Positions 13,886-54,864 are shown, counted from the stretch's first letter. The stretch is 64,000 bases of DNA from Desulfovibrio sp. (GCA_020060545.1 JAGUZX010000131.1:856-64855); one strand, 5' to 3'. Numbers and translations: made by a program. Notes: generated from the letters alone by a model not told the origin.

Positions 13886-14530
13886 TTATCCAGTAAACCG
13901 TTGCAGCAATTTTTTTTGCTCCGTCAAGAAGTAATCCTTTACTTCCGTCCAAGCCAGGGGCATATGCATTTTAGGGAGCGGTTCTCTTTCAGCATCATCA
14001 AAGTAGGAAAGGCTCTTGATCAGATGATAATAGTTTATTTCTGCTTCAGGGTACTTTTTGGGTAATAGTTCGATCATTGATTCGAGGCGGTTTTCCTTTT
14101 GGCAAATGATATAAAGATCGATGAAATCTTTACGGGCCCCCCTGTGGCTGACAGCAGCCCATTTCATCAAGCCAATATCCAATACGGATGCCAATTTTAA
14201 TCCCGGTATCTCCGTTGTTTGGATCAGCGACCCTAGAAGTGGGTTAGGATAATAAAGCCAGGTAAGGCGTATCCCATCCAAAAGGCCGTGAAAAGTGCCT
14301 TTTTGGGTATCCGCAATCTTGACTCGTCCGATCTGGGCCAGGCTTCGATATAAAACTTCAGGGTCAAAGGCAACAGGGGAAAACCAGTCAAAATCGACTG
14401 ATTCGCGATGGCCGAGGATGAGTGCGAGTGCCGTGCCGCCGGCCAGGTAGCTGCCGGGAAGAGGCAGGTTATCAACCAGGTTGGTCAAAAAAGCCTTTCC
14501 TTCTCTGCCGACCGTATTCCAGTAGAGCAC
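13886..14530 (-). CDS. Nucleotidyltransferase AbiEii/AbiGii-family toxin (type IV TA)
   Basis: LAGGTALALILGHRESVDFDWF is the GG(T/S)AL...R.S.D.D nucleotidyltransferase motif of AbiEii toxins. 214 aa. Confidence 0.7.
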   Translation of the reverse strand: MLYWNTVGREGKAFLTNLVDNLPLPGSYLAGGTALALILGHRESVDFDWFSPVAFDPEVLYRSLAQIGRVKIADTQKGTFHGLLDGIRLTWLYYPNPLLGSLIQTTEIPGLKLASVLDIGLMKWAAVSHRGARKDFIDLYIICQKENRLESMIELLPKKYPEAEINYYHLIKSLSYFDDAEREPLPKMHMPLAWTEVKDYFLTEQKKLLQRFTG

Positions 14531-27224: not shown

Positions 27225-28691
27225 TTGAACCTGAAGGCGCTGGTTAAAGAGAACGCCACCCTCAAGTCTGTATTAAACCATGCCGATGTGGCCGTGCATA
27301 TAGTGGACACGGACGGCATCACCCGGTTTTACAGCAAAGTAGCCGCGGAGATGGACGGCATGGAACCGGAAGAAGTGGTGGGCAAGCATATCCTGGAAGT
27401 TTATCCTTCGCTTACCATCGAATCCAGCTCGCTGCTGAAAGTCCTGGAAACGAAGAAAGCCGTTCTTAACCACCAGCAAACCGTGATCAACCATAAAGGC
27501 CGCGCTGTGACGATGTCGTATTCGACCTATCCCCTGTTTTACAATAACGAGATTGTCGGAGCCTGTGACATTTCACGCGATATCACCAGGATTAAAGAAC
27601 TTTCGGAGCGGCTGCTTGATTTGCAGGCGGAGCTGCTGGGGAAAAGAAACAGCGCCGCGCGCAAAGGCGCCGCCATCCAGGACAGCGTTCCTGTTGCCGG
27701 CGCCCGCTATACATTCAATGACCTGATCGGCCGTGATCAGAAGATGATTGATTTGAAAGTCCTCGGGCAGCGCGTGGCCCGGAGCGGTTCGCCGATTTTA
27801 GTTTACGGGGAAACCGGCACTGGCAAAGAGCTGCTGGTGCAGGCCATCCACAATGCCGGCCCGAACCGGCAAGGGCCGTTCATCGCCCAAAACTGCGCCG
27901 CCCTGCCGGCGACCCTTCTGGAAAGCATCCTTTTCGGCACGGTAAGAGGCAGTTTTACCGGTGCGGAGGACCGGCAGGGCCTCTTTGAAATGGCCGACGG
28001 GGGGATGCTTCTTTTTGACGAGATTAACTCCATGCCGGTCGAACTGCAGGGCAAACTGCTGCGCGTCTTGCAGGAAGGCGCTTTTCGCCGGGTTGGCGAT
28101 CACAGGCTCCGTAAAGTAAACGTCCGGGTGGTGGCCTCCACCAACGTCGACCCGCTGGCGGCGGTGAAGCAGCAGCTGCTGCGCCTGGACCTTTTCTACC
28201 GGCTGAATGTGATCTCGCTGCGGGTGCCGCCCCTGCGCGAACGCCCCGGCGATATCATGGTGCTGGCGGAACATTTTATTGACGAGTATAACCGGCTGTT
28301 CGGCATGCAAGTGCGCGGCTTCAGCGAAAAGGTGAAATATTTGTTTGAAAACCACTGCTGGCCGGGTAATGTGCGGGAGCTTAGAAACTGTATCGAGCAT
28401 GCCATGAATATTGTAGACGGGCCTGTGATTGAGGAAAGGTTCCTGCCGGCCCATGTCACCCAGGCCCAGGGGGGGGGATCCAGGCCCGCGGCAACCGCAG
28501 TGAGCCTGAGCAAGGGGCTCCCCGGGGCGATCAAGCAGCTGGAGAAAGAGGTGATTATGGAAACGCTGGAACAGTGTTCCTGGAACATTTCCCGGGCGGC
28601 CCGCCGCCTGAAGGTGCCGCGGCAAACCCTGCAATATAAACTGAGGATTTTAGGGGTTGCCGGCGGGGCGCTCAGGGAAGCGCCGCTGTAG
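27225..28691 (+). CDS. Sigma-54-dependent transcriptional activator (PAS sensor, AAA+ domain, Fis-type HTH)
   Basis: Walker A GETGTGKE, sigma-54 contact loop GSFTGA, Walker B LLFDEI, R-finger region, and C-terminal HTH NISRAARRLKVPRQTLQYKL. A TTG at 27225 follows GGAGGGGGG; the track start is 27180. Confidence 0.9.
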   Translation: MNLKALVKENATLKSVLNHADVAVHIVDTDGITRFYSKVAAEMDGMEPEEVVGKHILEVYPSLTIESSSLLKVLETKKAVLNHQQTVINHKGRAVTMSYSTYPLFYNNEIVGACDISRDITRIKELSERLLDLQAELLGKRNSAARKGAAIQDSVPVAGARYTFNDLIGRDQKMIDLKVLGQRVARSGSPILVYGETGTGKELLVQAIHNAGPNRQGPFIAQNCAALPATLLESILFGTVRGSFTGAEDRQGLFEMADGGMLLFDEINSMPVELQGKLLRVLQEGAFRRVGDHRLRKVNVRVVASTNVDPLAAVKQQLLRLDLFYRLNVISLRVPPLRERPGDIMVLAEHFIDEYNRLFGMQVRGFSEKVKYLFENHCWPGNVRELRNCIEHAMNIVDGPVIEERFLPAHVTQAQGGGSRPAATAVSLSKGLPGAIKQLEKEVIMETLEQCSWNISRAARRLKVPRQTLQYKLRILGVAGGALREAPL

Positions 28692-28810
28692 GTGCCGGAA
28701 TTCGGGCAGTAATGCCCAATTACCGGCATCGCGGTAGGTAAGTTTAGCTTTGGTTGCTGAAAATTTATTCGAACCGATTTAAATAAGGGCCGGAGACAAT
28801 TCAGGTTAAA

Positions 28811-28826
28811 TGGTATGAAAATTGCA
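28811..28826 (+). promoter_or_regulatory. Sigma-54 (-24/-12) promoter upstream of nhaC-family gene
   Basis: TGGTATGAAAATTGCA has GG-N10-GC spacing and fits TGGCAC-N5-TTGC. The 15-mer is identical to the one at 32666. It lies 140 nt upstream of the GTG at 28968 and directly downstream of the activator gene. Confidence 0.7.
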
Positions 28827-28967
28827 ATAATTTTTACTTCAAGTTGACTTTGCTAGCCGCTGCAAAATTTGATGCCCCATTGCTCTCGAGGGAGGTGAGG
28901 CGGCCGGTTATAGGTTAATGGTCTGACCCGGTTTTGCATTATTATATCTTAAAGGAGGTATGTCTAA

Positions 28968-30536
28968 GTGGAACCCGGTTTTCTTTCGATTTTACCGGCG
29001 CTGGTCGCGATCGTGCTGGCCATCGCCACCCGCCAGGTGATCCTTTCACTGTTCATCGCGGTCTGGCTCGGGGCGACATTTATCTACTCCTTCAACCCCG
29101 CGGTCGGGATTATGCGCACCCTGGATGAGTTTATCGTGGGCAGCGCGACGGACGGCTGGAACGCCGGTATTCTCATCTTTACCATGATCATCGCGGCCGC
29201 GATCGGGCTGGTCACCAGGTCCGGCGGGGCCCAGGCCATCGCCGAGGCGCTGAGCCGCAAGGCGAAGACCCCCCGGGCGGGGATGCTTTCCGCCTGGCTG
29301 ATGGGTTTAATCATCTTCTTCGACGATTACGGCAGCTGCCTGATCGCCGGCAACACTTCCCGGCCGATTACCGACAAGCTGAAGGTCTCCCGGGAGAAGC
29401 TCTCTTATATCGTCGACTCGACCGCAGCGCCGGTCGCGACCATCGCGGTTATTTCGACCTGGGTCGGGTACGAGATGGGCATGATCGCCGAAGGTTACGA
29501 CAAGATCGGTGTTGCCGTCAGCCCGTATATCGTCTTTCTGCAGACGATACCGTACCGCTTCTACAGCCTCTTCGCCCTGGCCATGGTCGTGATCCTTGCC
29601 ATTCTGATGCGTGATTTCGGGCCCATGTACCACGCCGAGGTCAGGGCGAGAACCACGGGCAAGCTGCTGCGGGACGGGGCGGTACCCCTTTCGGCCTCAG
29701 ACACAGCCGAACTGCAGGTCAAGGAAGGAACCCCTCTCCGCTGGATCAACTTTGTCCTGCCGCTCCTGGCGATCATCGTCAGCACCGTTATCGGCCTGTA
29801 TTATAACGGGGGAGGCGCGGAAGCCGGCGCCTTCCTGGATGCGATTGGAAATGCCGATGCCAGCGTGGTGCTGCTCTGGGCGTCCACGGCGGGCCTTGTG
29901 GTGGGGCTGATCCTGGTGCTGGCCCAGCGCATCCTGACCCTGAATGAGGCCATGGAGACGGTCATGAACGGGGCGAAGTCGGTGTTTACAGCGCTGGTGA
30001 TCCTGGTGCTGGCCTGGTCTCTCAGCGCCGTTTCCGGCGAGCTGGGAGCCGCCGAATACCTGGCTCCCATGGTCTCATCCGCCATCCCGATGTGGCTGGT
30101 GCCGTTTATGGTCTTTCTCGTGGCCTGCCTGGTTGCATTTGCCACCGGGACCTCCTGGGGCACGATGGGGATCCTGACCCCGATGGCGATTCCGATTGCT
30201 TACGCCTTCGGCGACGAGAGGATTCTGATCCCCACGGTGGCCGCGGTGCTGACCGGGGCGATCTTCGGGGACCACTGCTCGCCGATCTCCGACACGACGA
30301 TCCTCTCCTCCACCGGTGCCAGCTCCGACCATATCGACCACGTGCGCACCCAGCTACCCTATGCTATCGTTACCGCGGTGGTTGCGGGTATAATCGGTTT
30401 CATCCCGGCCGGTTTCGGGGTGCCCTGGTACGTTTCTTTTGTTATCGGTGTGGCGGCGCTGTATCTCATTGTCAAGTTCGTGGGCAAGAGCACGGAAGGC
30501 GTGTCGCTGCCGGTGGACAAAAAAGCAAAAGCATAA
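28968..30536 (+). CDS. NhaC-family Na+/H+ antiporter-type transporter (family also includes organic-ion and amino-acid antiporters)
   Basis: The GTG lies 9 nt after AAAGGAGG. MEPGFLSILPALVAIVLAIATRQV... 522 aa, about 12 TM helices. Confidence 0.8.
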   Translation: MEPGFLSILPALVAIVLAIATRQVILSLFIAVWLGATFIYSFNPAVGIMRTLDEFIVGSATDGWNAGILIFTMIIAAAIGLVTRSGGAQAIAEALSRKAKTPRAGMLSAWLMGLIIFFDDYGSCLIAGNTSRPITDKLKVSREKLSYIVDSTAAPVATIAVISTWVGYEMGMIAEGYDKIGVAVSPYIVFLQTIPYRFYSLFALAMVVILAILMRDFGPMYHAEVRARTTGKLLRDGAVPLSASDTAELQVKEGTPLRWINFVLPLLAIIVSTVIGLYYNGGGAEAGAFLDAIGNADASVVLLWASTAGLVVGLILVLAQRILTLNEAMETVMNGAKSVFTALVILVLAWSLSAVSGELGAAEYLAPMVSSAIPMWLVPFMVFLVACLVAFATGTSWGTMGILTPMAIPIAYAFGDERILIPTVAAVLTGAIFGDHCSPISDTTILSSTGASSDHIDHVRTQLPYAIVTAVVAGIIGFIPAGFGVPWYVSFVIGVAALYLIVKFVGKSTEGVSLPVDKKAKA

Positions 30537-30556
30537 CTTTTACGCCATGCAACGAC

Positions 30557-30587
30557 AGGCGCCGGCAGATGCCGGCGCCTTTTTTTC
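30557..30587 (+). terminator. Strong intrinsic terminator after the NhaC-family gene
   Basis: AGGCGCCGGC-agat-GCCGGCGCCT followed by TTTTTTT. Confidence 0.85.
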
Positions 30588-30603
30588 GCCTCGTGCCTGT
30601 AAC

Positions 30604-30620
30604 TTGGCATTATATTTGCG
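30604..30620 (+). promoter_or_regulatory. Sigma-54 (-24/-12) promoter upstream of GNAT-kamA
   Basis: TTGGCATTATATTTGCG = TGGCAT-N5-TTGC, with exact GG-N10-GC spacing. It lies 17 nt after the terminator U-tract and 178 nt before the GNAT start. Confidence 0.7.
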
Positions 30621-30797
30621 ATATAATTATTTAGATTTTAGTCCAGCCCGCAGGGGTCGCGTTGCGCTTTAAAACGCCGGGCCTGGCCTGCCGTGCTCCT
30701 GCTTCTTTCGCCGGAGCTCGCGGGCCGGCGGCAACCGGATACTTGCTTGATGGCAGCGCGCCGGGCTTATTGGCACCCGGCGCCGGGGAGGGATGAG

Positions 30798-31241
30798 ATG
30801 GAAATCCGGCAGGCCCATGCCGCTGATGAAAACGCTGTGTGCCGGTTGTGGGAAACGCTCCTCGCTTTTTACCGCAAGGAAACCGGCCGCCCGGTATTGC
30901 AGCGCAGCTTCCGGTATGCCGTCGGGCATCCCCGCCAGGTGCGCATTTACGTGGCGGTAATGGACGGCGCTATCGCGGGGACCGCCAGCCTGCACCTGGG
31001 CCATTACTCAACCTGGAACGACAACTGGTACGGGCACATCGAAGATGTTGTGGTGGCCCCGGAGTTCCGCCGCCGGGGGGTGGGGCTCCGCTTGATCCGG
31101 CACCTGATCGCTGTTGCAGAAGAGGAAGGACTGGCCAGGCTGGAGTTGAACACCCTGGCAACGAATCACGCCGCCCGCCGGCTGTACGAACAGCTCGGCT
31201 TTAAAACCGATTCCGTAGTTTACGAGCTGCCGCTCAAATGA
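30798..31241 (+). CDS. GNAT-family N-acetyltransferase (147 aa)
   Basis: The ATG follows GGGGAGGG. MEIRQAHAADENAVCRLWE..., motif A HIEDVVVAPEFRRRGVGLRLI, then ARRLYEQLGF. The TGA stop is embedded in the first TGAACTT palindrome. Confidence 0.8.
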   Translation: MEIRQAHAADENAVCRLWETLLAFYRKETGRPVLQRSFRYAVGHPRQVRIYVAVMDGAIAGTASLHLGHYSTWNDNWYGHIEDVVVAPEFRRRGVGLRLIRHLIAVAEEEGLARLELNTLATNHAARRLYEQLGFKTDSVVYELPLK

Positions 31242-31304
31242 ACTTAGGCGCCGGGCGCTTAAGTTCATTAACTTAAAAACTTGGGTGCCAGGCACCTAAG
31301 TTCA
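31237..31304. repeat. Palindromic element family P (TGAACT-N2-4-GGYGCC half-sites), locus A with two adjacent palindromes
   Basis: AATGAACTTAGGCGCC-G-GGCGCTTAAGTTCATT, then AACTTGGGTGCC-A-GGCACCTAAGTTCA. Confidence 0.85.
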
Positions 31305-31327
31305 CCAAGATGAAAGGGGTGTTCAAG

Positions 31328-32566
31328 ATGCGTGATTACCGGGAAATACCGCTCTGGAAAGATGTCTCGCCGGAAGAATGGAACGACTGGCACTGGCAGG
31401 TGGCGCACCGGATTACTTCCCTCGAGGAGTTGAAGCAGGTGATCCGGCTGACCGCCGGGGAAGAGGAAGGGGTCAGGCAGTGCCTGCGGACGCTGCGTAT
31501 GGCCATCACTCCCTACTACGCCACCCTGATCGATCCCGCCGATACGGGCTGCCCCGTCCGGCGGCAGGCGGTGCCCACCGCTCACGAGCTGAACATGGCT
31601 GCGTCAGACATGGCCGATCCCCTGCATGAGGATGTTGATTCGCCGGTGCCCGGGTTGACCCACCGTTACCCCGACCGGGTGCTGCTGCTCCTGACCGACC
31701 AGTGCTCCATGTACTGCCGCCACTGCACCCGGCGCCGTCTGGCGGGTGTGACCGACCGGCCCAGGAGCAGGGAGCAGATCGACCGGGCCGTCGAATACGT
31801 GCGCCGGACACCGGCGGTGCGCGACGTGGTTCTGTCGGGAGGCGACGGGCTGCTGCTGGCCGACGAGATCCTGGAGCATGTCCTGCAGCAGCTGCGGGCC
31901 GTCCCGCACGTGGAGATTATCCGCTTCGGCAGCCGCACTCCCGTGGTCTTGCCCCAGCGGATCACCCCGGAACTGTGCCGGATGCTGTCCCGTTATCACC
32001 CGGTCTATGTGAACGTCCATTTCAACCATCCCAAGGAGATCACCGCCGCCTCGGCGGAGGCATGCGCCCGCCTGGCGGACGCCGGTGTCCCCCTGGGGAA
32101 CCAGACCGTGCTCCTGGCCGGGATCAACGACTGCCCCCGGGTGCTGAAAGAGCTGTGCCAGGGCCTGCTGAAGATCAGGGTACGCCCTTATTACCTCTTC
32201 CAGTGCGACCTTTCCCAGGGGATCGAGCATTTCCGGACCCCGGTGGCGGCGGGGATCCAGGCGATCGAATTCCTGCGCGGGCACACCTCCGGGCTGGCCG
32301 TGCCCACTTATGCCATCGACGCTCCCGGCGGGGGAGGGAAGATCCCGGTCATGCCGCAGTATCTCATCTCCCAGTCCGGTTCGCGGGTGGTGCTGCGGAA
32401 CTTTGAAGGCGGGCTCTATACTTACACCGAACCGGGCCATTACGTCGATCCCGACCAGCCGTGCGCGCTTTGCGGCGGCAGGCACCAGGAAAACGGGATC
32501 GGGGTTGCCGGGATGTTAAACGGCCAGGTGGTGGCGATGGAGCCAGTGCTGAAAAAAGAGAAATAA
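31328..32566 (+). CDS. kamA: Lysine 2,3-aminomutase (radical SAM/PLP)
   Basis: Near-colinear with my recollection of Clostridium subterminale LAM: WNDWHWQV, LRMAITPYY, SPVPGLTHRYPDRVLLL, CSMYCRHCTRR, RIGSRTPVVLPQRIT, NHPKEIT, GNQTVLL. The lysine-binding Asp positions are kept (QCDLS and IDAPGGGGK). The ATG at 31328 follows AAAGGGGTG. Confidence 0.9.
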   Translation: MRDYREIPLWKDVSPEEWNDWHWQVAHRITSLEELKQVIRLTAGEEEGVRQCLRTLRMAITPYYATLIDPADTGCPVRRQAVPTAHELNMAASDMADPLHEDVDSPVPGLTHRYPDRVLLLLTDQCSMYCRHCTRRRLAGVTDRPRSREQIDRAVEYVRRTPAVRDVVLSGGDGLLLADEILEHVLQQLRAVPHVEIIRFGSRTPVVLPQRITPELCRMLSRYHPVYVNVHFNHPKEITAASAEACARLADAGVPLGNQTVLLAGINDCPRVLKELCQGLLKIRVRPYYLFQCDLSQGIEHFRTPVAAGIQAIEFLRGHTSGLAVPTYAIDAPGGGGKIPVMPQYLISQSGSRVVLRNFEGGLYTYTEPGHYVDPDQPCALCGGRHQENGIGVAGMLNGQVVAMEPVLKKEK

Positions 32567-32569
32567 TGA

Positions 32570-32598
32570 TGAACCCGGGCGCCCGGCGCCCAAGTTCA
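32570..32598. repeat. Palindromic element family P, locus B
   Basis: TGAACCCGGGCGCC-C-GGCGCCCAAGTTCA, starting 4 nt after the kamA stop. Confidence 0.8.
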
Positions 32599-32665
32599 GA
32601 TCCGGTTGCGCCCAAAATTGGGCATACCGGAAGCGGAAACGGTGCCCTCAGCGCCCCTTTTTATG

Positions 32666-32681
32666 TGGTATGAAAATTGCT
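32666..32681 (+). promoter_or_regulatory. Sigma-54 (-24/-12) promoter upstream of the first MttB-family gene
   Basis: TGGTATGAAAATTGCT, whose first 15 nt (TGGTATGAAAATTGC) are identical to the core at 28811. GG-N10-GC spacing. It lies 76 nt upstream of the start at 32757. Confidence 0.7.
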
Positions 32682-32756
32682 CTTACAGCACTGCAGTACT
32701 GTAATCTATTGACGGAAGGCTGCCGCCGGGCAGCCCTCATCAAAGGAGCGTGATCA

Positions 32757-34226
32757 TTGATGTTTAAACGCAAGTTGAAGCCGGTGCGCTCGGTCCTGGA
32801 ATGCAAGGTTTTAAGCGAGCGGGACATCGTGAAGATCCACCAGGCCGCCCTGGAGGTGATGGAGGAAGCGGGCGTAAGGTTCCCGTCGGAGCGGGCACTG
32901 AACGTGCTGGAAGAGGCGGGATGCCCGGTGGATCGCCAAACCATGGTCGCCAAGCTGCCTTCCGGCCTGGTGATGGATTGCCTGCGCCGGGCCCCCTCCC
33001 AGTACCTGCTGGCCGGGCGGGATCCCAAAGATGATCTCTGGATCGACGATAAAACTTCCTATCTCTCCACCGACGGCTGCGCGGTTGATTTTTACGATAT
33101 CCGCACCGGCGAACTGCGCCGCTCCACCAAGCAGGATATCACCGACGCCTGCCGGGTGGCCGACTACCTGCCGGAGATTTCGTATATCTGGGGTCCTCCC
33201 GTCAGCGCGCAGGACGTCCCGGCGGCGGTGCGACCGCTGCACGAGATCGAGGCGAGCATGGATGGGACCACGATGCATATCCAGCCGGAGACGGTTATTT
33301 CCAGGACAATCGCCCGTTTTGCCCTGGAGATGGCCGCCGCGGTGGCCGGCGGCAAAGAGGCGCTGCGCAAGCGGCCGCTCTTTTCGTACATGCAGTGCGC
33401 CACCGATCCGCTCGGGCAGGACGGGGGGAGCCTGGAGGCGTCAATGGTGGCGGCGGAGTGGGGGATCCCCACCGGTTTCATGCCGATGCCGATGTCCTGC
33501 GCCACCGCTCCGGCCACTTTGGCCGGCAACCTGGTGGTGACGACGGTCGACGCGGTCAGCCCCCTGGTACTGATGCAGCTGGTTAACCCGGGCGCGCCGG
33601 TCTATTTCGCCGCGGCGCCCACGGCAATCGACCTGCAGACCGGCGGCTATACCGGCGGCGGGCCGGAAGACTTCCTCCTGGCGGCCGCCTTTAGCCAGAT
33701 CTGCCGCTTCTACCAGATCCCCCTGGCCATGGGCGCTTTCGCCACCGGGTCCAAGGAACCGGACTGGCAGGCGGCGGTGGATAACTGTTTTTCCGGCCTG
33801 TTGCCGGTCCTCACCCGGACCGCCATCCTCAACGGGGCGGGGACCTTGAACGGCTCCAAGATCTTCTCCCTGCAGGCTTTGATCATGGACGCCGAGATTT
33901 ACAGCATCATCGCGCGGGTTGCCGAAGGGATCGAGGTCAGCGACGAGACGCTGGCCGTGGAGCTGATCAAAAAAATCGGCCCTGGCGGCAACTTCCTCGC
34001 CGAGAAGCACACCCGGCAGCACATGAAAGAGATCTGGCGCCCCGTTGTTTACGACCGCAAGCCCTACGGGGCCTGGCTGGAGAGCGGCAAGCGAGGCGCT
34101 TTCGAAGAAGCCACTGAAAAAGCGCGCTGGATCCTGGAGAACCACGCGGTGCAGCCGCTCGAACCCGGGATCAAGCAAGAATTTTCCAGGATAATCAAGG
34201 CCGCTGAAAAAGAGCTGGCCGGTTAA
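32757..34226 (+). CDS. MttB-superfamily (trimethylamine methyltransferase family, COG5598) methyltransferase, non-pyrrolysine type; substrate unknown
   Basis: An uninterrupted 489-aa ORF of MttB length and architecture (..VLSERDIVKIHQAALEVMEEAGVRF.., C-terminal ..GPGGNFLAEKHTRQHM..). There is no in-frame TAG. A corrinoid protein gene follows 15 nt downstream. Confidence 0.8.
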   Translation: MMFKRKLKPVRSVLECKVLSERDIVKIHQAALEVMEEAGVRFPSERALNVLEEAGCPVDRQTMVAKLPSGLVMDCLRRAPSQYLLAGRDPKDDLWIDDKTSYLSTDGCAVDFYDIRTGELRRSTKQDITDACRVADYLPEISYIWGPPVSAQDVPAAVRPLHEIEASMDGTTMHIQPETVISRTIARFALEMAAAVAGGKEALRKRPLFSYMQCATDPLGQDGGSLEASMVAAEWGIPTGFMPMPMSCATAPATLAGNLVVTTVDAVSPLVLMQLVNPGAPVYFAAAPTAIDLQTGGYTGGGPEDFLLAAAFSQICRFYQIPLAMGAFATGSKEPDWQAAVDNCFSGLLPVLTRTAILNGAGTLNGSKIFSLQALIMDAEIYSIIARVAEGIEVSDETLAVELIKKIGPGGNFLAEKHTRQHMKEIWRPVVYDRKPYGAWLESGKRGAFEEATEKARWILENHAVQPLEPGIKQEFSRIIKAAEKELAG

Positions 34227-34241
34227 AGGGGGATCAAACAA

Positions 34242-34892
34242 ATGGAACAGGCGCAACTTTTTGCCAGGATGAAGTCAGCCGTACTGGAGGGGGAGATCGG
34301 CCTGGCCGCGGATCTGGCCCTTAACGCGCTGGAAATGGGCTTAAGCCCGCTCACCTGCATCGAGGAAGGCTACGTCCCCGGGATCAACGAGGTCGGCCGC
34401 CTCTTCGAAGCGGGCGAAATGTTTCTTCCCGAGCTGGTGGCGGCGGCCGAAGTGATGAAGGCGGCCCTCGCCGTCCTGGAGCCGGAGCTGCTGCGCCGGC
34501 AGGTATCGCGCGCGACCATGGGCAAGGTGGTGATCGGGACCATGTTCAACGATATCCACGATATCGGCAAGGATATGGTCGCCTCCATGCTTACCGCTTC
34601 GGGGTTCGACGTGGTCAACCTGGGGGTGAACGTACCCTGCGCCGCCTTCATCGACAAGGTCAGGGAGCTGCAGCCGGAGATCCTGGGGCTCTCGGCCTTG
34701 CTGACCACAACCATGCCCGAGCAAAAGACGGTCATCGAGGCGCTGCAGCGGGAAGGGCTGCGCGGGACGGTCAAAGTAATCGTCGGCGGGGCCCCGGTCA
34801 ACCGGCAGTGGGCCGACTCGATCGGCGCCGACGGCTTCGCCGAAAACGCCATCGAAGCGGTAAAGGTGGCCAAACGGCTGGTCGGCAAGTAA
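34242..34892 (+). CDS. Corrinoid (B12-binding) protein, MtbC/MttC/MtgC-like
   Basis: N-terminal helical cap (EEGYVPGINEVGRLFEAGEMFLPELV). B12-binding DxHxxG motif in GTMFNDIHDIGKDMV, then LSALLTTTM. Confidence 0.9.
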   Translation: MEQAQLFARMKSAVLEGEIGLAADLALNALEMGLSPLTCIEEGYVPGINEVGRLFEAGEMFLPELVAAAEVMKAALAVLEPELLRRQVSRATMGKVVIGTMFNDIHDIGKDMVASMLTASGFDVVNLGVNVPCAAFIDKVRELQPEILGLSALLTTTMPEQKTVIEALQREGLRGTVKVIVGGAPVNRQWADSIGADGFAENAIEAVKVAKRLVGK

Positions 34893-34964
34893 CATGCCGG
34901 GAGAGGCCGTAACCAATGCGCCGGGATTGCCAACATTTGCTTTGTGCTGGCTTGGGCCAAGTTT

Positions 34965-35033
34965 GGCACCTAGTGAACTGAAAAGTTCATTTGGTGCCTG
35001 GCACCAAATGAACTTTGGTTCCTTTGTTACTGG
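34965..35033. repeat. Palindromic element family P, locus C (contains a perfect 33-bp palindrome at 34983-35015)
   Basis: GGCACCTAGTGAACT-gaaa-AGTTCATTTGGTGCC-T-GGCACCAAATGAACTT, followed by a degenerate fourth arm. Confidence 0.85.
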
Positions 35034-35122
35034 CAAGGTAAGCCTCGCCCGCGGGCGGCGCATGCGCCGGCCCTACGGTTTAAGTGTAAAATACCCTGCA
35101 GCAAAAGGGAGGGTTTTAAGCG

Positions 35123-36604
35123 ATGGAGAAGTTCAGCTTCAAGGGCCAGCCGCGCCTGCGGCTCTTGTCCGACGAGCAGATCGAGCTGATGCACGAAAAA
35201 GCGCTCTATATCCTCGAGAACACCGGGGTCAAGTTCGAATCCGAGGAAGCGCTGAAAATTTTGAAAGATCACGGCGCGCAGGTTGACTTTACGCAAAAGA
35301 TCGCCCGGATCAAGCCGGAAATGGTGATCGACGCCGTGCAAAAGGCGCCCTCCGCCTTACGGCTGTACAACCGGGACGGGGAGCCCGCCGCTGATTTAAG
35401 CGGCAACAACGTCCACTTTGATCCCGGTTCGGCCGCGATCAAGTTCATGGAATCGGACGGCGTGACCGTCCGCCAGTCCAGGGCGGAAGACCTGGCCCGG
35501 ATCTCCAAAGTAAACGACGCCCTGGACAATATCGCCCTCCAGTCCACGGCTGTCGTGGCCTACGACGTGCCCAAGCTAATCGGCGACAGCTACCGGCTTT
35601 ACATTTTACTGAAGCACTCTCCCAAGGCGATCATCACTGGCGCCTTCAGCGTGCACGGCGTCGCCCACATGAGGGAGATGCTGGCCGCCGTGGCGGGGGG
35701 GTACGAGCGGCTGAGGGAGAAACCGGTGGCCGTTTTTGACATCTGCCCCTCCCCGCCGCTAAAATGGACGCACATCAGCGCGCAGAATATTATCGACTGC
35801 GCCCGTTTCGGCCTGCCCCTGGAGACGGTCTCCATGCCGATGCCCGGCGCCGCATCGCCGGTGACCCTTTCCGGGTCGATCCTGATCCATACCGCGGAGA
35901 CGCTGAGCGGCATCGTTCTGGCCCAATGTGTCAGCCCGGGCGCCCCGGTGGTGTACGGCGGGGCGCCGGTTCATTTTGACATGCGCTTCGGCACCACCCC
36001 TTTAAGCGCGATCGAGGCGACGATGATCGCTGCGGCCTACGCCCAGATGGGTAAATTTTACGGGATGCCCACCCACACCTACGCGGGCTTGAGCGACGCC
36101 AAGGTGGTCGACGCCCAGGCCGGCCTGGAAACGGGGATGAGCGGCGTCGTGGCCCAGCTGGCCGGGATTAACGTGATCTCTGGCGCCGGGGCCCTGGATT
36201 TCGTGAGCTGCATCAGCTTGGAGAAGCTGGTTATCGACAACGAGATCTGCGGGATGGCGCTGCGTCTGCACCGGGAAATCGACTGCTCGGCGGAAGCGAT
36301 GGCGGTTGAACTGGTGCGCGACCTCGGGCCGGGCGGGGACTACCTCGGCACGGAGCACACTTTCCGGTGGTTCAAGAAGGAGCCGTATATCACCTCCCCG
36401 GTAATCGACCGCCGCGATCGCGGCGGCTGGGTGGAGCAGGGCAGCAAGGATGCCTTTGCCCGCGCCAGGGAGAGAGTCTGTGAAATTGAGGGCGGCCACA
36501 GCCCCGTCCCTCTGGACGGGGAGCGGGCCGCCGCGCTGGACCGGGCCGCCTCACGTGTCATGGACGAACTGGGCATCGCCGCCCTCCCCCTCGGCCCCCG
36601 CTAG
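35123..36604 (+). CDS. MttB-superfamily methyltransferase, second diverged paralog, non-pyrrolysine; substrate unknown
   Basis: Uninterrupted 493-aa ORF (..LLSDEQIELMHEKALYILENTGVKF.., ..GPGGDYLGTEHTFRWF..). GGGAGGG acts as RBS. Confidence 0.8.
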   Translation: MEKFSFKGQPRLRLLSDEQIELMHEKALYILENTGVKFESEEALKILKDHGAQVDFTQKIARIKPEMVIDAVQKAPSALRLYNRDGEPAADLSGNNVHFDPGSAAIKFMESDGVTVRQSRAEDLARISKVNDALDNIALQSTAVVAYDVPKLIGDSYRLYILLKHSPKAIITGAFSVHGVAHMREMLAAVAGGYERLREKPVAVFDICPSPPLKWTHISAQNIIDCARFGLPLETVSMPMPGAASPVTLSGSILIHTAETLSGIVLAQCVSPGAPVVYGGAPVHFDMRFGTTPLSAIEATMIAAAYAQMGKFYGMPTHTYAGLSDAKVVDAQAGLETGMSGVVAQLAGINVISGAGALDFVSCISLEKLVIDNEICGMALRLHREIDCSAEAMAVELVRDLGPGGDYLGTEHTFRWFKKEPYITSPVIDRRDRGGWVEQGSKDAFARARERVCEIEGGHSPVPLDGERAAALDRAASRVMDELGIAALPLGPR

Positions 36605-36936
36605 ACTGGAAATTGGATGCAGGATGTTGGAAGTTGGCAAAGAGGTCGCATTTAAGCTGTAGAAGGGACGAGGTCTGCCACGCAAACCGGAGGCCAAAGG
36701 CCAGAGGCCGGAATCCGGAGGGCAAAGGCTTAGCGCAGGCGGAAAAGAAGGCTACGACCGCACAGATTAACGGAGCCGCACCACCGGCCGCCTCGTCTTT
36801 GAGGGGGAAGCGGGGCAGAGCTGAGTCACGGAGATGCGGCGGGAGTGGATTATATCGAATGATGCCGCACTCTTCCCGATTAAATAAGAGATCTCTTTTT
36901 CATCGATTATCGACCAAAGGAGGTTTTATCCGGAAG

Positions 36937-37569
36937 ATGGCCAATTTGGAAACCCTTAAAAAAGGGGTTATCGAGGGAGACGTGCAGCTGGTAATGGAAG
37001 AGACCAGGTCCTGCCTGGACAGCGGGATGGACGGCCTGGCAATTATCAACGAAGGCCTGGTGGCGGGGATGAACGTGGTCGGGCCGCGTTTTAAGGCCGG
37101 GGAGATGTTTGTCCCGGAGGTGCTGATGTCGGCGAAAGCGATGGCCGCGGGGGTAGAGCTGGTCAAATCCGTCCTCGTGGACACCGAGATACCGACCGCC
37201 GGAAAGGTGCTGATCGGCACGGTCAAAGGAGACCTGCACGATATCGGCAAGAACCTGGTCTCGATCATGCTGGAGAGCAGCGGGTTTGAGGTGGTGAACA
37301 TGGGCGTGGACATCCCCCCGGAGCAGTTTGCCGCGGCGATTCGGGAGCACAAGCCCCAGATCGTCGGCCTGTCGGCCCTCCTCACGACGACCATGCTGGC
37401 GATGAAGGATACGATCGACTACCTCCGGGCGGAAGGCCTGCGCGACTCGATCAAGGTGGTCATCGGCGGCGCGCCGGTGACGGCCGACTTCGCCAAAGAG
37501 ATCGGCGCCGACGGCTACGCCCCCGACGCCGGCGCCGCCGTCGAGCTGGCCCAAGGCCTCCTCGGTTAG
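36937..37569 (+). CDS. Corrinoid (B12-binding) protein, second copy
   Basis: The ATG at 36937 follows AAAGGAGG. MANLETLKKGVIEGD..., cap GMNVVGPRFKAGEMFVPEVL, DxHxxG in GTVKGDLHDIGKNLV, then LSALLTTTM. The track's 108-aa N-terminal extension is Arg/Gly-rich and is rejected. Confidence 0.9.
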   Translation: MANLETLKKGVIEGDVQLVMEETRSCLDSGMDGLAIINEGLVAGMNVVGPRFKAGEMFVPEVLMSAKAMAAGVELVKSVLVDTEIPTAGKVLIGTVKGDLHDIGKNLVSIMLESSGFEVVNMGVDIPPEQFAAAIREHKPQIVGLSALLTTTMLAMKDTIDYLRAEGLRDSIKVVIGGAPVTADFAKEIGADGYAPDAGAAVELAQGLLG

Positions 37570-37599
37570 GGGGTCAGGCCTTAAATTGCGTCATATGCA

Positions 37600-37626
37600 G
37601 CCCCGGATATAACCCGGGGCTTTTTT
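37600..37626 (+). terminator. Intrinsic terminator after the second corrinoid gene
   Basis: GCCCCGG-atataa-CCGGGGC followed by TTTTTT. Confidence 0.8.
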
Positions 37627-37649
37627 GATTATAATGAATTTAGGTGTTT

Positions 37650-37720
37650 GGTACCGGAATGAACTAATAAGTTCATTTGGTGCCTGGCACCGGAGTGAAC
37701 TTTTTAGTTCGCTTGGGGCC
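37650..37720. repeat. Palindromic element family P, locus D (71-bp composite of four half-sites)
   Basis: GGTACCGGAATGAACTaataAGTTCATTTGGTGCC-T-GGCACCGGAGTGAACTttttAGTTCGCTTGGGGCC. Same 35+1+35 architecture as locus G. Confidence 0.85.
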
Positions 37721-37745
37721 AGACTACGGTGAAGAGGTGGCTTAC

Positions 37746-38919: not shown

Positions 38920-39936
38920 GTGTCCGTAACGGAGAGCCCGTTTCAAGCTGATACATGCCCCGAGTTGAAGGAGGTCGAAGCGACAATCAGGATGTCGCTG
39001 CAGACCCAGTCATCCGGCCTGCAGGAGATGATTGTGCATCTCCTGCAGGCCGGCGGCAAGAAGCTGCGCCCGCTGTTGGTCCTGCTTTGCGCCGGCCTGA
39101 GCGGCGGGGAAATGTACAGTATCAAACGGGTGGAGCTGCTGCGGGTTGCCGCGGCTGTAGAGATGATTCATACTGCTTCCCTGGTGCACGATGATATTAT
39201 CGACGGCGCTGCCTCGCGCCGCGGCAGGGAAACTCTCCACTTCCGCTGGGACACAAAAAAAGCTGTTTTGGCCGGCGATTTTCTGCTGGCCAGGGCTTTT
39301 GATCTTTTGTGCGGCCTGGAGCAAAAAGGATCGCTGCTGCCCCTGTTCGCCCGGTCGGTGGCCCTGATGTGCCAGGGAGAGATCAGGCAGCTGGCCGGCA
39401 ACTACTGCTGGGAAACCAGCGAAAAGAACTATTTCCATTTCAACTATCTCAAAACAGCGCAGTTCCTCGCCTCCTGCTGTGAGGCGGGGGCGACAGTGAT
39501 GAAGGCCGGGGAAGGGGAAATCAAGAACTTAAGGCGCTACGGCTTTTACCTGGGGCAGGCTTTCCAGATTGTCGACGACATCCTCGATTACACCGCGGAT
39601 CCCGTAAAACTTGGCAAGCCTGTAGGAAAAGATCTGAGGCAGGGGACGGTCACGCTGCCCTTAATCTACCTGCTTCGGGTGGATCACCGTTACCGCCACC
39701 TGCTGCGAGCCGCTTCGACCCGGCGCCCCGCCCTGGCCGCACACCTGCAAGAACAGGTGGATCGGGCGGTGCGTGCGAGCGGTGCGCTTCAGTATGCTTC
39801 CCGCAGGGCCGCCCGGGCCGGGGAAGCCGCCATTAATGCGCTGCAGCGTTTTCCGCCCACCCGCTCCCGGCAGCTGCTCAAGCAGATCGCCGAAGCGATT
39901 GCGGGCAGGGTTGCCTTCGTCAAAGGGCAACAATAA
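38920..39936 (+). CDS. Polyprenyl diphosphate synthase (HepT/heptaprenyl- or octaprenyl-type trans-IPPS)
   Basis: LLQAGGKKLRP, first DDxxD in ASLVHDDIIDG, and second DDxxD in AFQIVDDILDY..GKPVGKDL. The start is uncertain (GTG 38920 after AGGTGG). The track's N-terminal 69 aa are unsupported. Confidence 0.8.
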   Translation: MSVTESPFQADTCPELKEVEATIRMSLQTQSSGLQEMIVHLLQAGGKKLRPLLVLLCAGLSGGEMYSIKRVELLRVAAAVEMIHTASLVHDDIIDGAASRRGRETLHFRWDTKKAVLAGDFLLARAFDLLCGLEQKGSLLPLFARSVALMCQGEIRQLAGNYCWETSEKNYFHFNYLKTAQFLASCCEAGATVMKAGEGEIKNLRRYGFYLGQAFQIVDDILDYTADPVKLGKPVGKDLRQGTVTLPLIYLLRVDHRYRHLLRAASTRRPALAAHLQEQVDRAVRASGALQYASRRAARAGEAAINALQRFPPTRSRQLLKQIAEAIAGRVAFVKGQQ

Positions 39937-39974
39937 CTTAATAAATGGTGCCTGGCACCATTTATTAAGTTATT
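39932..39974. repeat. Palindromic element family P, locus E (43-bp perfect palindrome, AT-rich arm variant)
   Basis: AATAACTTAATAAATGGTGCC-T-GGCACCATTTATTAAGTTATT. The TAA stop of the preceding gene lies inside the left arm. It is the exact reverse complement of locus H. Confidence 0.9.
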
Positions 39975-44072: not shown

Positions 44073-44179
44073 GCTTCACACTCCGCTGTCGATGATTGGA
44101 AGAAAATAGCCGCACCGGCAGCGATGCGGCTGCGTTCTTACCTGAACTCTGGCGCCCGGCGCCCGGGCTCATGGTGACG

Positions 44180-49347: not shown

Positions 49348-49402
49348 TGAAACTAAAGTGCCAGGCGCCGGCGTGAACTTGGGCGCCTGGCACCTCAGTT
49401 CA
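49348..49402. repeat. Palindromic element family P, locus F
   Basis: ...AAAGTGCC-A-GGCGCCGGCGTGAACTTGGGCGCC-T-GGCACCTCAGTTCA. Confidence 0.75.
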
Positions 49403-50824: not shown

Positions 50825-52378
50825 ATGGGTGGATCCATTCACTTGAGCCCCGTTTCCGGCCCGGTGGAAATTGACGGCGGCGGCATGACCATTGAAGAGG
50901 TGGTGCAGGTCGCCCGCCGCGCCAGGGAGGTAACGCTGTCGCCCTCTTCGATCGAGCGGATCGCCGCCTCCCGGGCCATGCTGGAAAAGCTGGTCCGGGA
51001 AGAAAGGGTTGTCTACGGCATCACCACCGGTTTCGGCCGGTTCAGCGACGTGGTCATCTCCAAAGAAGACGCCGCCCGGCTGCAGAAGAATCTGATCGCC
51101 AGCCACGCCGCGGCGGTCGGGGAGCCGCTGCCCGCAGAGGTTGTACGCGGGGCGCTTCTGCTGCGGGCGGTCGCCCTCGCCGGGGGGTATTCGGGTGTCC
51201 GGCCGCTGGTCGTCGAGCAGCTGGTGGCCCTCTTAAATAAGGGGGTCGTGCCGCTCGTACCCTGCCAGGGCTCCCTGGGGGCCAGCGGAGACCTGGCCCC
51301 GCTGGCCCACCTGGCGCTCGTGCTCACCGGCCAGGGGGAGGCGTTTTTCCGGGGGCGCCGGATAAGCGGGGCGGCCGTCCTGGCCGAGGCGGGGATGGAA
51401 CCGGTCACGCTGATGGAAAAAGAGGGGCTGGCGCTGATTAACGGCACCCAGATCATGACCTCGCTCGCCGCCCTGGCGGTCTTTGATGCGGGGAACATCG
51501 TCAAAGCGGCGCAGATTACCGCCGCGTTAACCCTGGAGGCACTCATGGCTGTGCCTGACGCATTCGATCCGCTGCTTGCACGGGTCCGCCCGCACCGGGG
51601 CCAGGCGCGCACGGCGCGGAACATCGTCCGCCTGGTCGAAGGAAGCGCCCTGATCGGCGCGGACCGCCGCAAAGTGCAGGATGCCTACAGTTTGCGCTGC
51701 ATCCCTCAGGTCCACGGGGCTACCGCCGACGCACTTGATTATGTGCGCGGCGTAATCGAGGTAGAGATTAACTCCGTCACCGACAACCCGCTCCTGTTTG
51801 TCGAAGAAGGGCGCGTCTTATCCGGAGGCAATTTCCACGGCCAGCCGGTAGCCCAGGCCATGGATTTCCTGGCTATCGCCGTCGCCGAGCTCGGCAGTAT
51901 CGCCGAGCGGCGCGTGGAAAGAGCGGTTAACCCGTCCCTCAGCGGATTGCCCCCTTTTTTGATCCATGAGGGAGGGCTCAATTCGGGTTTCATGATCGCC
52001 CAGTACACCGCCGCTTCCCTAGCCTCCGAAAACAAGGTCCTTTGCCACCCGGCCGGCGTCGACTCGATCCCCTCCTCGGCCAACCAGGAAGACCATGTCA
52101 GCATGGGCGCCACCGCCGCGCGCAAAGCGCGCCAGGTTGTGGAAAATGTAAGCCGGATTTTGGGGATCGAGTTGTTAACTGCGGCCCAGGCGGTCGATTT
52201 TCGGAACCCGCAAAAAATGGGCCGGGGCACGGCTCTGGCGCACAGGCTGCTGCGGGAAGAGGTCCCGTTCATCGCCCGGGATCAACCGCTCTATCCGCTG
52301 ATCAACCGGGCGGTGGAACTGGTCTCCGGCGGGCGGCTGGTAGAAGCGGTAGAAAAGGAAATTCCCCTTGAGCTGTAG
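50825..52378 (+). CDS. hutH: Histidine ammonia-lyase
   Basis: MIO-forming segment GSLGASGDLAPLAH. Family blocks include YGITTGFG, NGTQ and QEDHVSMG. Confidence 0.95.
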   Translation: MGGSIHLSPVSGPVEIDGGGMTIEEVVQVARRAREVTLSPSSIERIAASRAMLEKLVREERVVYGITTGFGRFSDVVISKEDAARLQKNLIASHAAAVGEPLPAEVVRGALLLRAVALAGGYSGVRPLVVEQLVALLNKGVVPLVPCQGSLGASGDLAPLAHLALVLTGQGEAFFRGRRISGAAVLAEAGMEPVTLMEKEGLALINGTQIMTSLAALAVFDAGNIVKAAQITAALTLEALMAVPDAFDPLLARVRPHRGQARTARNIVRLVEGSALIGADRRKVQDAYSLRCIPQVHGATADALDYVRGVIEVEINSVTDNPLLFVEEGRVLSGGNFHGQPVAQAMDFLAIAVAELGSIAERRVERAVNPSLSGLPPFLIHEGGLNSGFMIAQYTAASLASENKVLCHPAGVDSIPSSANQEDHVSMGATAARKARQVVENVSRILGIELLTAAQAVDFRNPQKMGRGTALAHRLLREEVPFIARDQPLYPLINRAVELVSGGRLVEAVEKEIPLEL

Positions 52379-52456
52379 AACTGTTCTTAGAGATTCGCCT
52401 TTTGCCGTCTAATGAAAGGGCAAGGGCAATGAAAAACCAAACCGGGGGGAAAAAAG

Positions 52457-52894: not shown

Positions 52895-52982
52895 CTTGAA
52901 GCTCGAACCTTGGAAGCAGGAGGTAGAAAGCAGAAGGTTGGAGACAAACCGCCCGTCTTCCGGCCCCCAAGCGGCGAGATTT

Positions 52983-53053
52983 ATCGATCGGGAGAACGGT
53001 CCTCTTGATCGATAGCCAGGAAAACGTCCCCCTGTTCTAGCCTCTTGATCGAT
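52983..53053. repeat. Hairpin repeat family H (stem + GAGAACGGTCC/CCGTCCCC core), hutP-hutU spacer
   Basis: ATCGATCGGGAGAACGGTCCTCTTGATCGAT, then ...AACGTCCCCC...CCTCTTGATCGAT (partial second copy). Confidence 0.7.
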
Positions 53054-53067
53054 GGGAGGTGTTTCGC

Positions 53068-54720: not shown

Positions 54721-54738
54721 AAGGTTAGGGTCTGGATG

Positions 54739-54841: not shown

Positions 54842-54864
54842 CTATTTTGGACAGGAGTGATCAA

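Follow-up and report, generated by a model that had tools for sequence, protein, structure and literature searches.

Regulons of σ54 activators that govern amino acid catabolism are common in the Clostridiales, and one of these regulons contains nhaC (PMC6615313). A survey that was based on matrices only listed MttB (COG5598) in Clostridia and lysine 2,3-aminomutase (COG1509) in Bacilli as σ54 targets, with no operon or pathway context (PMC12316311), and Syntrophomonas wolfei was found to express PAS/σ54/DNA-binding regulators (PMC4324140). Here, we analyzed a locus in which the gene for a regulator of this kind is followed by both types of genes. The locus occupies positions 27225 to 37626 of a 64-kb stretch of DNA from Desulfovibrio sp. 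(GCA_020060545.1, JAGUZX010000131.1:856-64855); the whole 64-kb stretch is referred to as the window. The locus begins with the activator gene and continues with a gene for an NhaC-type transporter, genes for a GNAT N-acetyltransferase and a lysine 2,3-aminomutase (KamA), and genes for two MttB-superfamily methyltransferases and two corrinoid proteins (MttB1, Cor1, MttB2, and Cor2).

The results of our analysis suggested, with reasonable confidence, that the locus is a σ54-dependent, activator-gated island of three insulated transcription units with a lysine-linked function. The regulation is textbook and ordinary for Clostridia-like bacteria; the metabolic module appears to be undescribed. 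The MttB superfamily is large, and its few known substrates are trimethylamine, glycine betaine, proline betaine, carnitine, gamma-butyrobetaine, and choline. Each new MttB substrate has altered the view of methylated-amine turnover in guts, sediments, and wetlands. In the case of lysine 2,3-aminomutase, the kamA-yodP-yodQ operon of Bacillus subtilis, in which YodQ is the deacylase counterpart, has been proposed to run via acetylated beta-lysine as a catabolic intermediate.

Three putative σ54 promoters downstream of an activator gene

We searched both strands of the whole window for the strict promoter pattern TGGYAY-N5-TTGC. Exactly three matches were found, at 28811 (site 1, TGGTATGAAAATTGC(A)), 30604 (site 2, TTGGCATTATATTTGCG), and 32666 (site 3, TGGTATGAAAATTGC(T)). 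All three were noncoding, were on the plus strand, and were located less than 4 kb downstream of the gene for the PAS-AAA+-helix-turn-helix (HTH) activator. A preliminary description of the window had placed three sites with exact -24/-12 spacing at these positions, and it had noted an identical 15-mer in sites 1 and 3; both statements were borne out, since TGGTATGAAAATTGC is present in both sites.

The corresponding promoters, all on the plus strand, were designated P1 (aTGGTATgaaaaTTGCa, 28810 to 28826), which precedes the transporter gene and has a predicted transcript start near 28837; P2 (TTGGCATtatatTTGCg, 30604 to 30620), which precedes the GNAT-KamA genes and is the best consensus match of the three; and P3 (gTGGTATgaaaaTTGCT, 32665 to 32681), which precedes MttB1-Cor1-MttB2-Cor2 and has a predicted transcript start near 32692. 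The GG-N10-GC spacing was exact, and the GG and GC dinucleotides were intact in each promoter, with the GC of the -12 box at 28824-5, 30618-9, and 32679-80, respectively. Compared to TTGGCATN5TTGCT, P1 had three mismatches, P2 had one, and P3 had two. Measured from the end of TTGC, the likely start codons (GTG 28968, ATG 30798, and TTG 32757) were 142, 178, and 76 nt away, which matched the 76 to 178 nt given in the earlier account. Each promoter is preceded either by a terminator or by the activator gene's stop codon, and no σ70-like sites were seen on the plus strand of the three promoter spacers.

We also tried a hand-weighted consensus score, which failed to set the three sites apart from GC-rich look-alikes in coding sequence; only the strict pattern together with its context was informative. 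The promoter case gained weight from the position and strand of the sites, from their conservation in relatives, and from the palindrome that co-occurs upstream. From these features, we consider the three sites very probably to be real σ54 promoters.

Elsewhere in the window, the closest match to the clostridial σ54 consensus was TTGGCAGTTTCGTTGCT at 7998 to 8014, which has one mismatch. It falls within the coding sequence of a sodium:solute symporter gene (7142 to 8635) and is probably a chance match.

Conservation of the promoters in related loci

For comparison, we used a set of 80 loci that was obtained by scanning for MttB1 with one genome per species; individual loci are referred to by L numbers. 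The nearest ~19 loci (78 to 88% identity) were from Bacillota/Syntrophomonadaceae metagenome-assembled genomes (MAGs) that originated from biogas reactors, sediments, and soda lakes, and the gene order GNAT-KamA-MttB1-Cor1-MttB2-Cor2 was kept in these ~19 loci.

A P3-type element, TGG[ACT]A[CT]-N5-TTGC, was present in 11 of the 16 distinct MttB1 upstream regions, 57 to 96 nt before the start codon. The GG and GC boxes of this element were fixed while the spacers between them differed among relatives (GAAAA, AATAA, GATTA, GACTT, AGTTT, and GGATT), as did the flanking sequence. In the case of P1, orthologous sites were found upstream of the NhaC-type gene in L004 (TGGTATAATATTTGC), L019 (TGGTATGCGAATTGC), and L001 (cGGTATAAAATTTGC), and the L001 counterpart reads cGG. 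P2 was kept directly after the NhaC terminator in L001 (6484), L004 (3569), and L019 (4823), and a promoter was also present ahead of GNAT in L006, L009, L013, and L017; altogether, seven relatives had a promoter ahead of GNAT or after the NhaC-type gene. Among the strict-pattern matches in the close loci, 26 of 28 were on the cluster strand and none was within cluster coding sequence.

The activator and a candidate binding palindrome

The activator gene (27225 to 28691, plus strand) codes for a σ54 enhancer-binding protein, and its likely start codon is TTG 27225, behind GGAAGGAGG. Pfam searches identified PAS_4 (residues 32 to 137), Sigma54_activat (residues 182 to 347; 2.8e-59), AAA_lid_14, and a Fis-type HTH_8 (residues 451 to 489), in agreement with the earlier claim that the sites lie directly downstream of a σ54 activator with a PAS sensor. 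The Walker A motif is GETGTGKE, and the loop is GSFTGA, which is one conservative change from GAFTGA. Thus, the protein has the full NtrC/NifA-class set of an N-terminal sensor, an AAA+ domain with Walker A motif and loop, and a C-terminal HTH. It is not a PrdR equivalog; the best curated model, NF041552, scored 359.7 bits against a cutoff of 795, with a match that began at model position 131. Activator orthologues (55 to 76% identity) adjoin the cluster in six relatives (L001, L004, L009, L013, L017, and L019).

When the promoter regions were aligned on the -24 box, a 16-bp palindrome, TGCCSN-AAWW-NSGGCA, was exposed. We refer to this palindrome (TGCCSNAAWWNSGGCA) as the candidate upstream activating sequence (UAS). 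One pair of copies, TGCCGGAATTCGGGCA at 28693 to 28708 and TGCCCAATTACCGGCA at 28713 to 28728, begins two bases past the activator stop codon; the two copies are 20 bp apart and are located 118 and 98 nt upstream of the -24 TGG of P1. A further copy, CGCCCAAAATTGGGCA at 32609 to 32624, is located 57 nt upstream of the -24 TGG of P3. We then scored the window with a weight matrix that was trained on the relatives' sites only, with the window left out. The three copies ranked first to third in the 64 kb, with scores of 21.2 (32609), 20.6 (28713), and 19.8 (28693), and the next-best match, which scored 15.0, was in coding sequence.

The arrangement was similar in the relatives. At the promoter that comes first behind the activator gene, paired palindromes were found at -106/-86 in L004, -111/-91 in L019, and -110/-90 in L017, and also in L001. 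At MttB1 promoters (L001 to L004, L006, L009, and L019), a palindrome was located at -57 to -61, and in many cases another was present at -76 to -78. In addition, 26 of the 59 relaxed palindrome matches in relatives fell within the 3% of the sequence that was at most 260 nt upstream of a σ54 site. The palindrome is likely to be the binding site of the adjacent activator, and, given its placement, we regard control of P1 and P3 by this activator as quite probable. In L017, GNAT directly follows the activator gene, and the paired palindromes (-110/-90) belong to the GNAT promoter, which points to a shared regulator, at least in that arrangement.

Two further sequences were considered as P2 sites and rejected. 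A palindrome-like sequence at the GNAT start (30796, and also in L017 and L009) was explained by the coding of EIRQ and was not conserved elsewhere, and the everted GGCA..TGCC that the NhaC terminator carries in its loop was specific to the window. The preliminary description had assigned all three promoters to one activator; this assignment was supported for the transporter and MttB promoters, which share the palindrome, and not for the GNAT-KamA promoter, which has none. As a reading of the locus, a σ54 regulon thus has good support in the transporter and MttB units and is plausible in the GNAT-KamA unit.

In one pair of related loci, the regulon appears to be much larger. The contig CAYXKD010000010.1 (L006/L007) carries two tandem copies of KamA-MttB1-Cor-MttB2 and three or four further σ54 promoters, each with a similar palindrome 76 to 89 nt upstream. 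The genes behind these promoters include those for a binding protein with a proline-racemase-family gene and another MttB, an amino acid dehydrogenase with an MFS transporter, and an ornithine-cyclodeaminase-family gene with an Opp-type ABC transporter.

Genes and boundaries of the three predicted transcription units

The products of the cluster genes had previously been described as a transporter, a GNAT protein, KamA, and MttB and corrinoid proteins, and Pfam and NCBIfam searches upheld these identities. The transporter gene (28968 to 30536, plus strand) starts with GTG behind AAAGGAGG and codes for an NhaC-superfamily membrane protein (Na_H_antiporter, 3.7e-64). Among the NCBIfam models, those for Tet(35)-like proteins, the ArcD arginine/ornithine antiporter, and NhaC were matched weakly, with scores far under the cutoffs. 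Orthologues (62 to 85% identity) occupy the same position in six relatives (L001, L004, L009, L010, L012, and L019). The NhaC-type transporter is probably the importer of the substrate.

The second unit starts with the GNAT gene (30798 to 31241, plus strand; 147 amino acids), whose start was corrected to ATG 30798. The best 25 of its 30 NCBIfam matches were to generic or other GNATs, far under the cutoffs, and no beta-lysine acetyltransferase model was among them. AblB/YodP-type proteins are roughly twice as long. The KamA gene (31310 to 32566, plus strand) codes for an L-lysine 2,3-aminomutase of the KamA/AblA type, with radical S-adenosylmethionine (SAM) and pyridoxal phosphate (PLP) features, which passed the AblA equivalog model TIGR03820 (583.8 bits against a cutoff of 525.4). 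Relative to the Clostridium subterminale enzyme (2A5H; 627 bits), CxxxCxxC, Asp293, Asp330, and Lys337 are conserved (QCDLS and IDAPGGGGK). The protein keeps the PLP lysine and both of the Asp residues that hold the epsilon-ammonium group of lysine. KamA is a genuine lysine 2,3-aminomutase.

The third unit contains two MTTB genes, each of which is followed by a gene for its own B12-binding corrinoid protein. MttB1 (32757 to 34226, plus strand; MTTB, 3e-87; the database gene call starts at ATG 32760) and MttB2 (35123 to 36604, plus strand) are members of the non-pyrrolysine MttB superfamily, and MttB2 is divergent, with ~30% identity to MttB1. Both missed the trimethylamine MttB equivalog TIGR02369 (450.5 for MttB1 and 428.7 for MttB2, against a cutoff of 525). 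Neither gene has an in-frame UAG, and the pyrrolysine position is Ala in MttB1 and Leu in MttB2. A PYLIS_3 match in MttB2 (36089 to 36188; 36.5 bits against a gathering threshold of 38) was rejected as a recoding signal because the site codes for Leu and has no UAG; we attribute the match to coding homology. In MtgB, the residues that bind glycine betaine are Y97, R312, H348, and F356 (PMC13080624). All four are replaced at the aligned positions, by C/A/N/S in MttB1 and by S/H/S/V in MttB2, which makes glycine betaine an unlikely substrate for either protein. The best 120 relatives of each protein were all from MAGs or metagenomes, and their source names, where present, were generic; about one-third of the 120 MttB1 relatives carried a source name, in each case a generic one.

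Cor1 (34242 to 34892, plus strand) has B12-binding_2 and B12-binding domains (TIGR02370, 213.4 versus 215.3 bits), and Cor2 (36937 to 37569, plus strand) is likewise a B12-binding corrinoid protein. The start of Cor2 was corrected from the open reading frame (ORF) start at 36613 to ATG 36937 (MANLETLK), because the extension from 36613 is noncoding: its translation is rich in arginine and makes no sense, alignments with relatives begin only at residue 109, and on an identical 2.3-kb Logan contig the independently called gene begins 333 nt past the MttB2 stop codon. The resulting MttB2/Cor2 spacer (36605 to 36936) is 332 nt long and purine-rich, compared to 45 to 76 nt in relatives; it had no significant RNA structure relative to shuffled sequence (z = -1.1) and no Rfam match.

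The units are separated by terminators. The preliminary description had noted a strong terminator after the transporter gene, and we located it on the plus strand at 30557 to 30587 (hairpin at 30557 to 30580), with a 10-bp stem that includes nine GC pairs and a T7 tail. The stem, GCGCCGGC..GCCGGCGC, was identical in the window, L001, L004, and L019, and the terminator is located 10 to 25 nt upstream of the -24 box of P2. Terminator stems tend to covary rather than stay fixed, and this stem may have a second role as a protein-binding site. Between KamA and P3, a weak hairpin (GGTGCCCTCAGCGCC; 32641 to 32655) followed by a T-run (CCTTTTTATG) spans 32641 to 32664 on the plus strand. A hairpin or T-run is found at the same place in relatives, most clearly in L008, and the element is probably the terminator of the GNAT-KamA unit. 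An intrinsic terminator on the plus strand at 37599 to 37627 (hairpin at 37599 to 37621), with an 8-bp stem that includes seven GC pairs and a T6 tail, closes the MttB unit.

MttB1 and KamA genes are linked in three phyla

The link between MttB1 and KamA spans Bacillota, Actinomycetota (Thermoleophilia), and Desulfobacterota. Specifically, KamA was found less than 10 kb from MttB1 orthologues in Bacillota, in ~35 Thermoleophilia/Actinomycetes loci, and in one Desulfobacteraceae locus. The MttB1 orthologues in the other phyla showed 51 to 66% identity. In the ~35 Thermoleophilia/Actinomycetes loci, a KamA homologue (52 to 60% identity) is located 3 to 5 kb downstream on the same strand, and the KamA homologues that are linked to MttB1 in other phyla keep both of the lysine-binding Asp residues. 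The surrounding genes differ. The Thermoleophilia/Actinomycetes island (L021 to L062; e.g., 8245 to 18520 of L023) contains three or four tandem MttB paralogues, a Fer2-RACo activase, and EamA transporters. For these high-GC loci, greedy ORF clustering was noisy (antisense ORFs often won), and Pfam scans of chosen ORFs were used instead. Many of the MAGs with this island come from peat and wetland samples.

In the Desulfobacteraceae locus, MttB1-Cor-M20 deacylase is found beside KamA. A Clostridia contig carries MttB1-Cor-M20-GNAT, and a Desulfobacterales genome carries MttB1-Cor, a polar-amino-acid ABC system, and an M20 deacylase. Anaerolineae loci have an MttB1/MttB2 pair, a corrinoid protein, and an MFS transporter, without KamA. 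In L001, the closest relative, an APC amino acid permease is located between the NhaC-type transporter and GNAT, behind the post-terminator σ54 promoter (6484 to 7953), and an extra MttB and a saccharopine-dehydrogenase-family gene (105 to 2827) are found directly upstream of the activator gene.

The aminomutase, the acetyltransferase or deacylase, the transporters for basic or polar amino acids, and the saccharopine-type neighbor point to a lysine-derived substrate. The methylated amine related to lysine or beta-lysine that was proposed in the preliminary description is therefore plausible, given the MttB1-KamA link in three phyla and the lysine-type neighbors; as to the substrate itself, we put forward a methylated lysine derivative tentatively. 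The candidates are N-epsilon-tri- or dimethyl-lysine and a lysine- or pipecolate-derived betaine. The full proposal is a little more speculative still. It holds that MttB1, MttB2, and their corrinoid proteins might carry out an undescribed anaerobic, cobalamin-dependent demethylation of a methylated lysine derivative, that the lysine released would pass to KamA and the acetyltransferase, and that the genes would be under a clade-specific σ54 activator with a new binding motif.

Proposed model and alternative explanations

In the model that we favor, the PAS domain would sense the substrate or a related small-molecule signal. The activator would bind to the palindromes and, through ATP hydrolysis, remodel the σ54 holoenzyme at P1, at P3, and perhaps also at P2. 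Transcription from P1 would supply the NhaC-type importer, P3 would supply MttB1-Cor1-MttB2-Cor2, and P2 would supply GNAT-KamA; at P2, activation might come from the same protein bound to the sites ~2 kb distant in both directions, or from a different activator. We infer the following direction of flux from the gene content. The NhaC-type carrier would import a cationic methylated lysine-like compound, and MttB1 and MttB2 would each methylate their own corrinoid protein, with successive methylation states or two related compounds as their possible substrates. The methyl groups would be passed to tetrahydrofolate, and thus to one-carbon metabolism, via a methyltransferase and a reductive activase that are encoded elsewhere. 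The lysine skeleton would be converted to beta-lysine by KamA and then N-acetylated by GNAT, and the N-acetylated product would be a catabolic intermediate or the compatible solute N-epsilon-acetyl-beta-lysine.

Several observations weigh against this model, and some of them favor other explanations. No Sigma54 factor (rpoN) domains were found among the window ORFs that were scanned. For the P3 conservation, the binomial probability of 3e-21 (versus a local background of 6e-5 per nt per strand) treats related species as more independent than they are, and statistics over relatives ignore shared ancestry. The enrichment of the strict pattern in the window was modest (three found versus 0.52 expected, and 3 of 100 shuffles also gave three), and looser consensus patterns were not enriched in the window (52 found versus 54 expected), so the motif count by itself was weak evidence. 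In addition, the soda-lake relatives L010 to L012 have the genes and lack the σ54 sites, and a σ70-like TTGTTACAAT is found ahead of GNAT instead; σ54 control thus belongs to one clade and not to the gene set. The weak motif statistics, the relatives that do without the motif, and the position of the best single consensus match (7998) inside coding sequence would all fit with motifs that are chance look-alikes, in which case the genes would be transcribed from unrecognized σ70-type promoters or by read-through. We consider this explanation very improbable, because the GG and GC boxes hold their position across species though the spacers vary, the specific palindrome co-occurs at fixed offsets, a dedicated activator gene adjoins, and the three spacers have no σ70-like matches on the plus strand.

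The remaining points concern the link between the units and the substrate. P2 had no convincing UAS; the best matrix score was 9.3 at 30594, which overlaps the -24 box. It could be that the locus holds two side-by-side systems, in which the activator runs only the transporter and MttB/corrinoid genes, and GNAT-KamA forms an AblA/AblB-like module of its own for the synthesis of the compatible solute N-epsilon-acetyl-beta-lysine, with its own σ54 promoter under an unlinked activator, for example one for osmotic or ammonia stress. The lack of the palindrome that marks P1 and P3, the terminators that insulate the GNAT-KamA unit on both sides, a KamA above the AblA equivalog cutoff, and the soda-lake sediments and biogas reactors from which the closest relatives come are all in keeping with such an arrangement, which we nevertheless judge to be rather unlikely. 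GNAT-KamA stays directly upstream of MttB1 in ~14 related loci, KamA without a detected GNAT is still linked to MttB1 orthologues in Thermoleophilia and Desulfobacteraceae, and the L017 GNAT promoter carries two palindromes. The GNAT itself counts against both readings: it is short and generic and not of the AblB type, and at 147 amino acids it matched no beta-lysine acetyltransferase model. A comparably low probability attaches to the idea that the MttB pairs demethylate a common quaternary amine (glycine betaine, proline betaine, choline, or carnitine), with the lysine link being a by-product of the clustering of catabolic islands. Every characterized non-pyrrolysine MttB acts on a common betaine or choline (PMC13080624, PMC8604678, PMC12155760), and the L006/L007 contig packs several unrelated amino acid genes and further MttB copies behind similar promoters. 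However, both MttB proteins lack all four of the MtgB glycine betaine residues, neither reaches the trimethylamine MttB cutoff, the relatives of both subfamilies (best 120 each) are metagenomic only and have generic names, and the MttB1-KamA link recurs in three phyla with different surrounding genes. For the favored model of a single lysine-linked island, two further points are unfavorable: the cross-phylum linkage could reflect transfer of the whole island instead of independent selection, and a methylcorrinoid:tetrahydrofolate/coenzyme M methyltransferase and a reductive activase (RamA/RACo) were not among the window ORFs that were scanned, although both are required by every MttB system and may be encoded elsewhere in the genome.

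The link to lysine 2,3-aminomutase, which is conserved in three phyla including the abundant peat and wetland Thermoleophilia, gives two uncharacterized MttB subfamilies a testable substrate clue. The activator, its predicted binding site, and the promoters provide a genetic handle that could be used as a reporter in inducer screens. Should the substrate indeed be a methylated lysine, the route would be the first in which free methyl-lysines are demethylated anaerobically and independently of oxygen.

Other features of the window

Neither a riboswitch nor a leader was identified in the window with Rfam, and the predicted 5' untranslated regions of the transporter and GNAT genes showed no advantage in folding over shuffled sequence. 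GC-rich palindromes that share the core GG[TC]GCCNGGC[AG]CC (GGTGCCNGGCACC) make up a family; they are flanked by GTTCA/TGAAC or by AATAACTTAATAAAT arms and form perfect stems of up to 21 bp. Nine copies were found in the window (31239 to 31304, 32569 to 32598, 34960 to 35016, 37644 to 37725, 39932 to 39974, 44151 to 44163, 49357 to 49394, 60629 to 60678, and 63618 to 63660); almost all of them are intergenic, and three of the nine are in spacers within the cluster. We rejected these palindromes as regulator sites because the 80 related loci contained only two matches, which suggested that they are genome-specific repetitive extragenic palindromic (REP)-like elements.

The genes that flank the cluster look unrelated to it and code for an isochorismatase, a spermine-synthase-like protein, a radical SAM protein, and a polyprenyl synthase. 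A histidine utilization set is located at 50825 to 59066 and includes genes for histidine ammonia-lyase (50825 to 52378), urocanase (53059 to 54720), and formiminotransferase (56456 to 57562), as well as an amidohydrolase (57810 to 59066) that is likely to be imidazolonepropionase. An ORF at 13886 to 14530 matched the AbiEii nucleotidyltransferase toxin family only over a short stretch at its N terminus and may be what is left of a type IV toxin-antitoxin gene.

Comparison with known systems

In the literature that we searched, no functional link was found between MttB-family enzymes and lysine aminomutase, trimethyllysine, methyl-lysines, or beta-lysine. The preliminary description had not recognized the gene combination as a described pathway; the literature searched likewise held no description of it, and the combination proved to be conserved.

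The regulatory part of the locus resembles the clostridial regulons PrdR-prd and OrdR-ord...nhaC (Nie et al. 2019, PMC6615313). As in those regulons, the gene for an activator with a Fis-type HTH is found beside its putative targets, the promoters are of the TTGGCATN5TTGCT type with one or more palindromes upstream, the regulon is local and consists of one to three operons, and an NhaC-type amino acid transporter is among the predicted targets. In contrast, none of the 39 activator groups in that study targets MttB, corrinoid, KamA, or GNAT genes, and the palindrome here is TGCCC-N6-GGGCA rather than the TGT-N10-12-ACA that is common among clostridial activators. The candidate UAS of P3 is also nearer to its promoter (about 50 to 95 nt) than the usual 100 to 250 nt in clostridial regulons, and the activator scored under the equivalog cutoff for PrdR (359.7 versus 795).

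The third unit can be compared to the non-pyrrolysine MttB systems, namely, MtgB, MtpB (proline betaine), MtcB (carnitine), MtyB (gamma-butyrobetaine), and the choline pathway of Eubacterium limosum. MttB1 and MttB2 share with these enzymes an MTTB fold without an in-frame UAG, and, as in those systems, each MttB is followed by its own B12-binding corrinoid protein and a transporter is nearby; the host, which we take to be an anaerobic member of the Bacillota, is a further common feature. The locus differs from them in having two divergent MttB/corrinoid pairs in one operon and a tight link to KamA and GNAT, and the cluster itself is without a second methyltransferase or an activase. In comparison with MtgB, the substrate-binding residues are all replaced in both proteins.

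The second unit is reminiscent of the AblA/AblB system, since an AblA-equivalog lysine 2,3-aminomutase is paired with an N-acetyltransferase, and the distant MttB1 loci add an M20 deacylase, comparable to YodQ in B. subtilis. Here, however, the GNAT gene comes first in the order, its product is short and generic and not AblB- or YodP-like, and the pair is located under a putative σ54 promoter, between a transporter and corrinoid methyltransferases.

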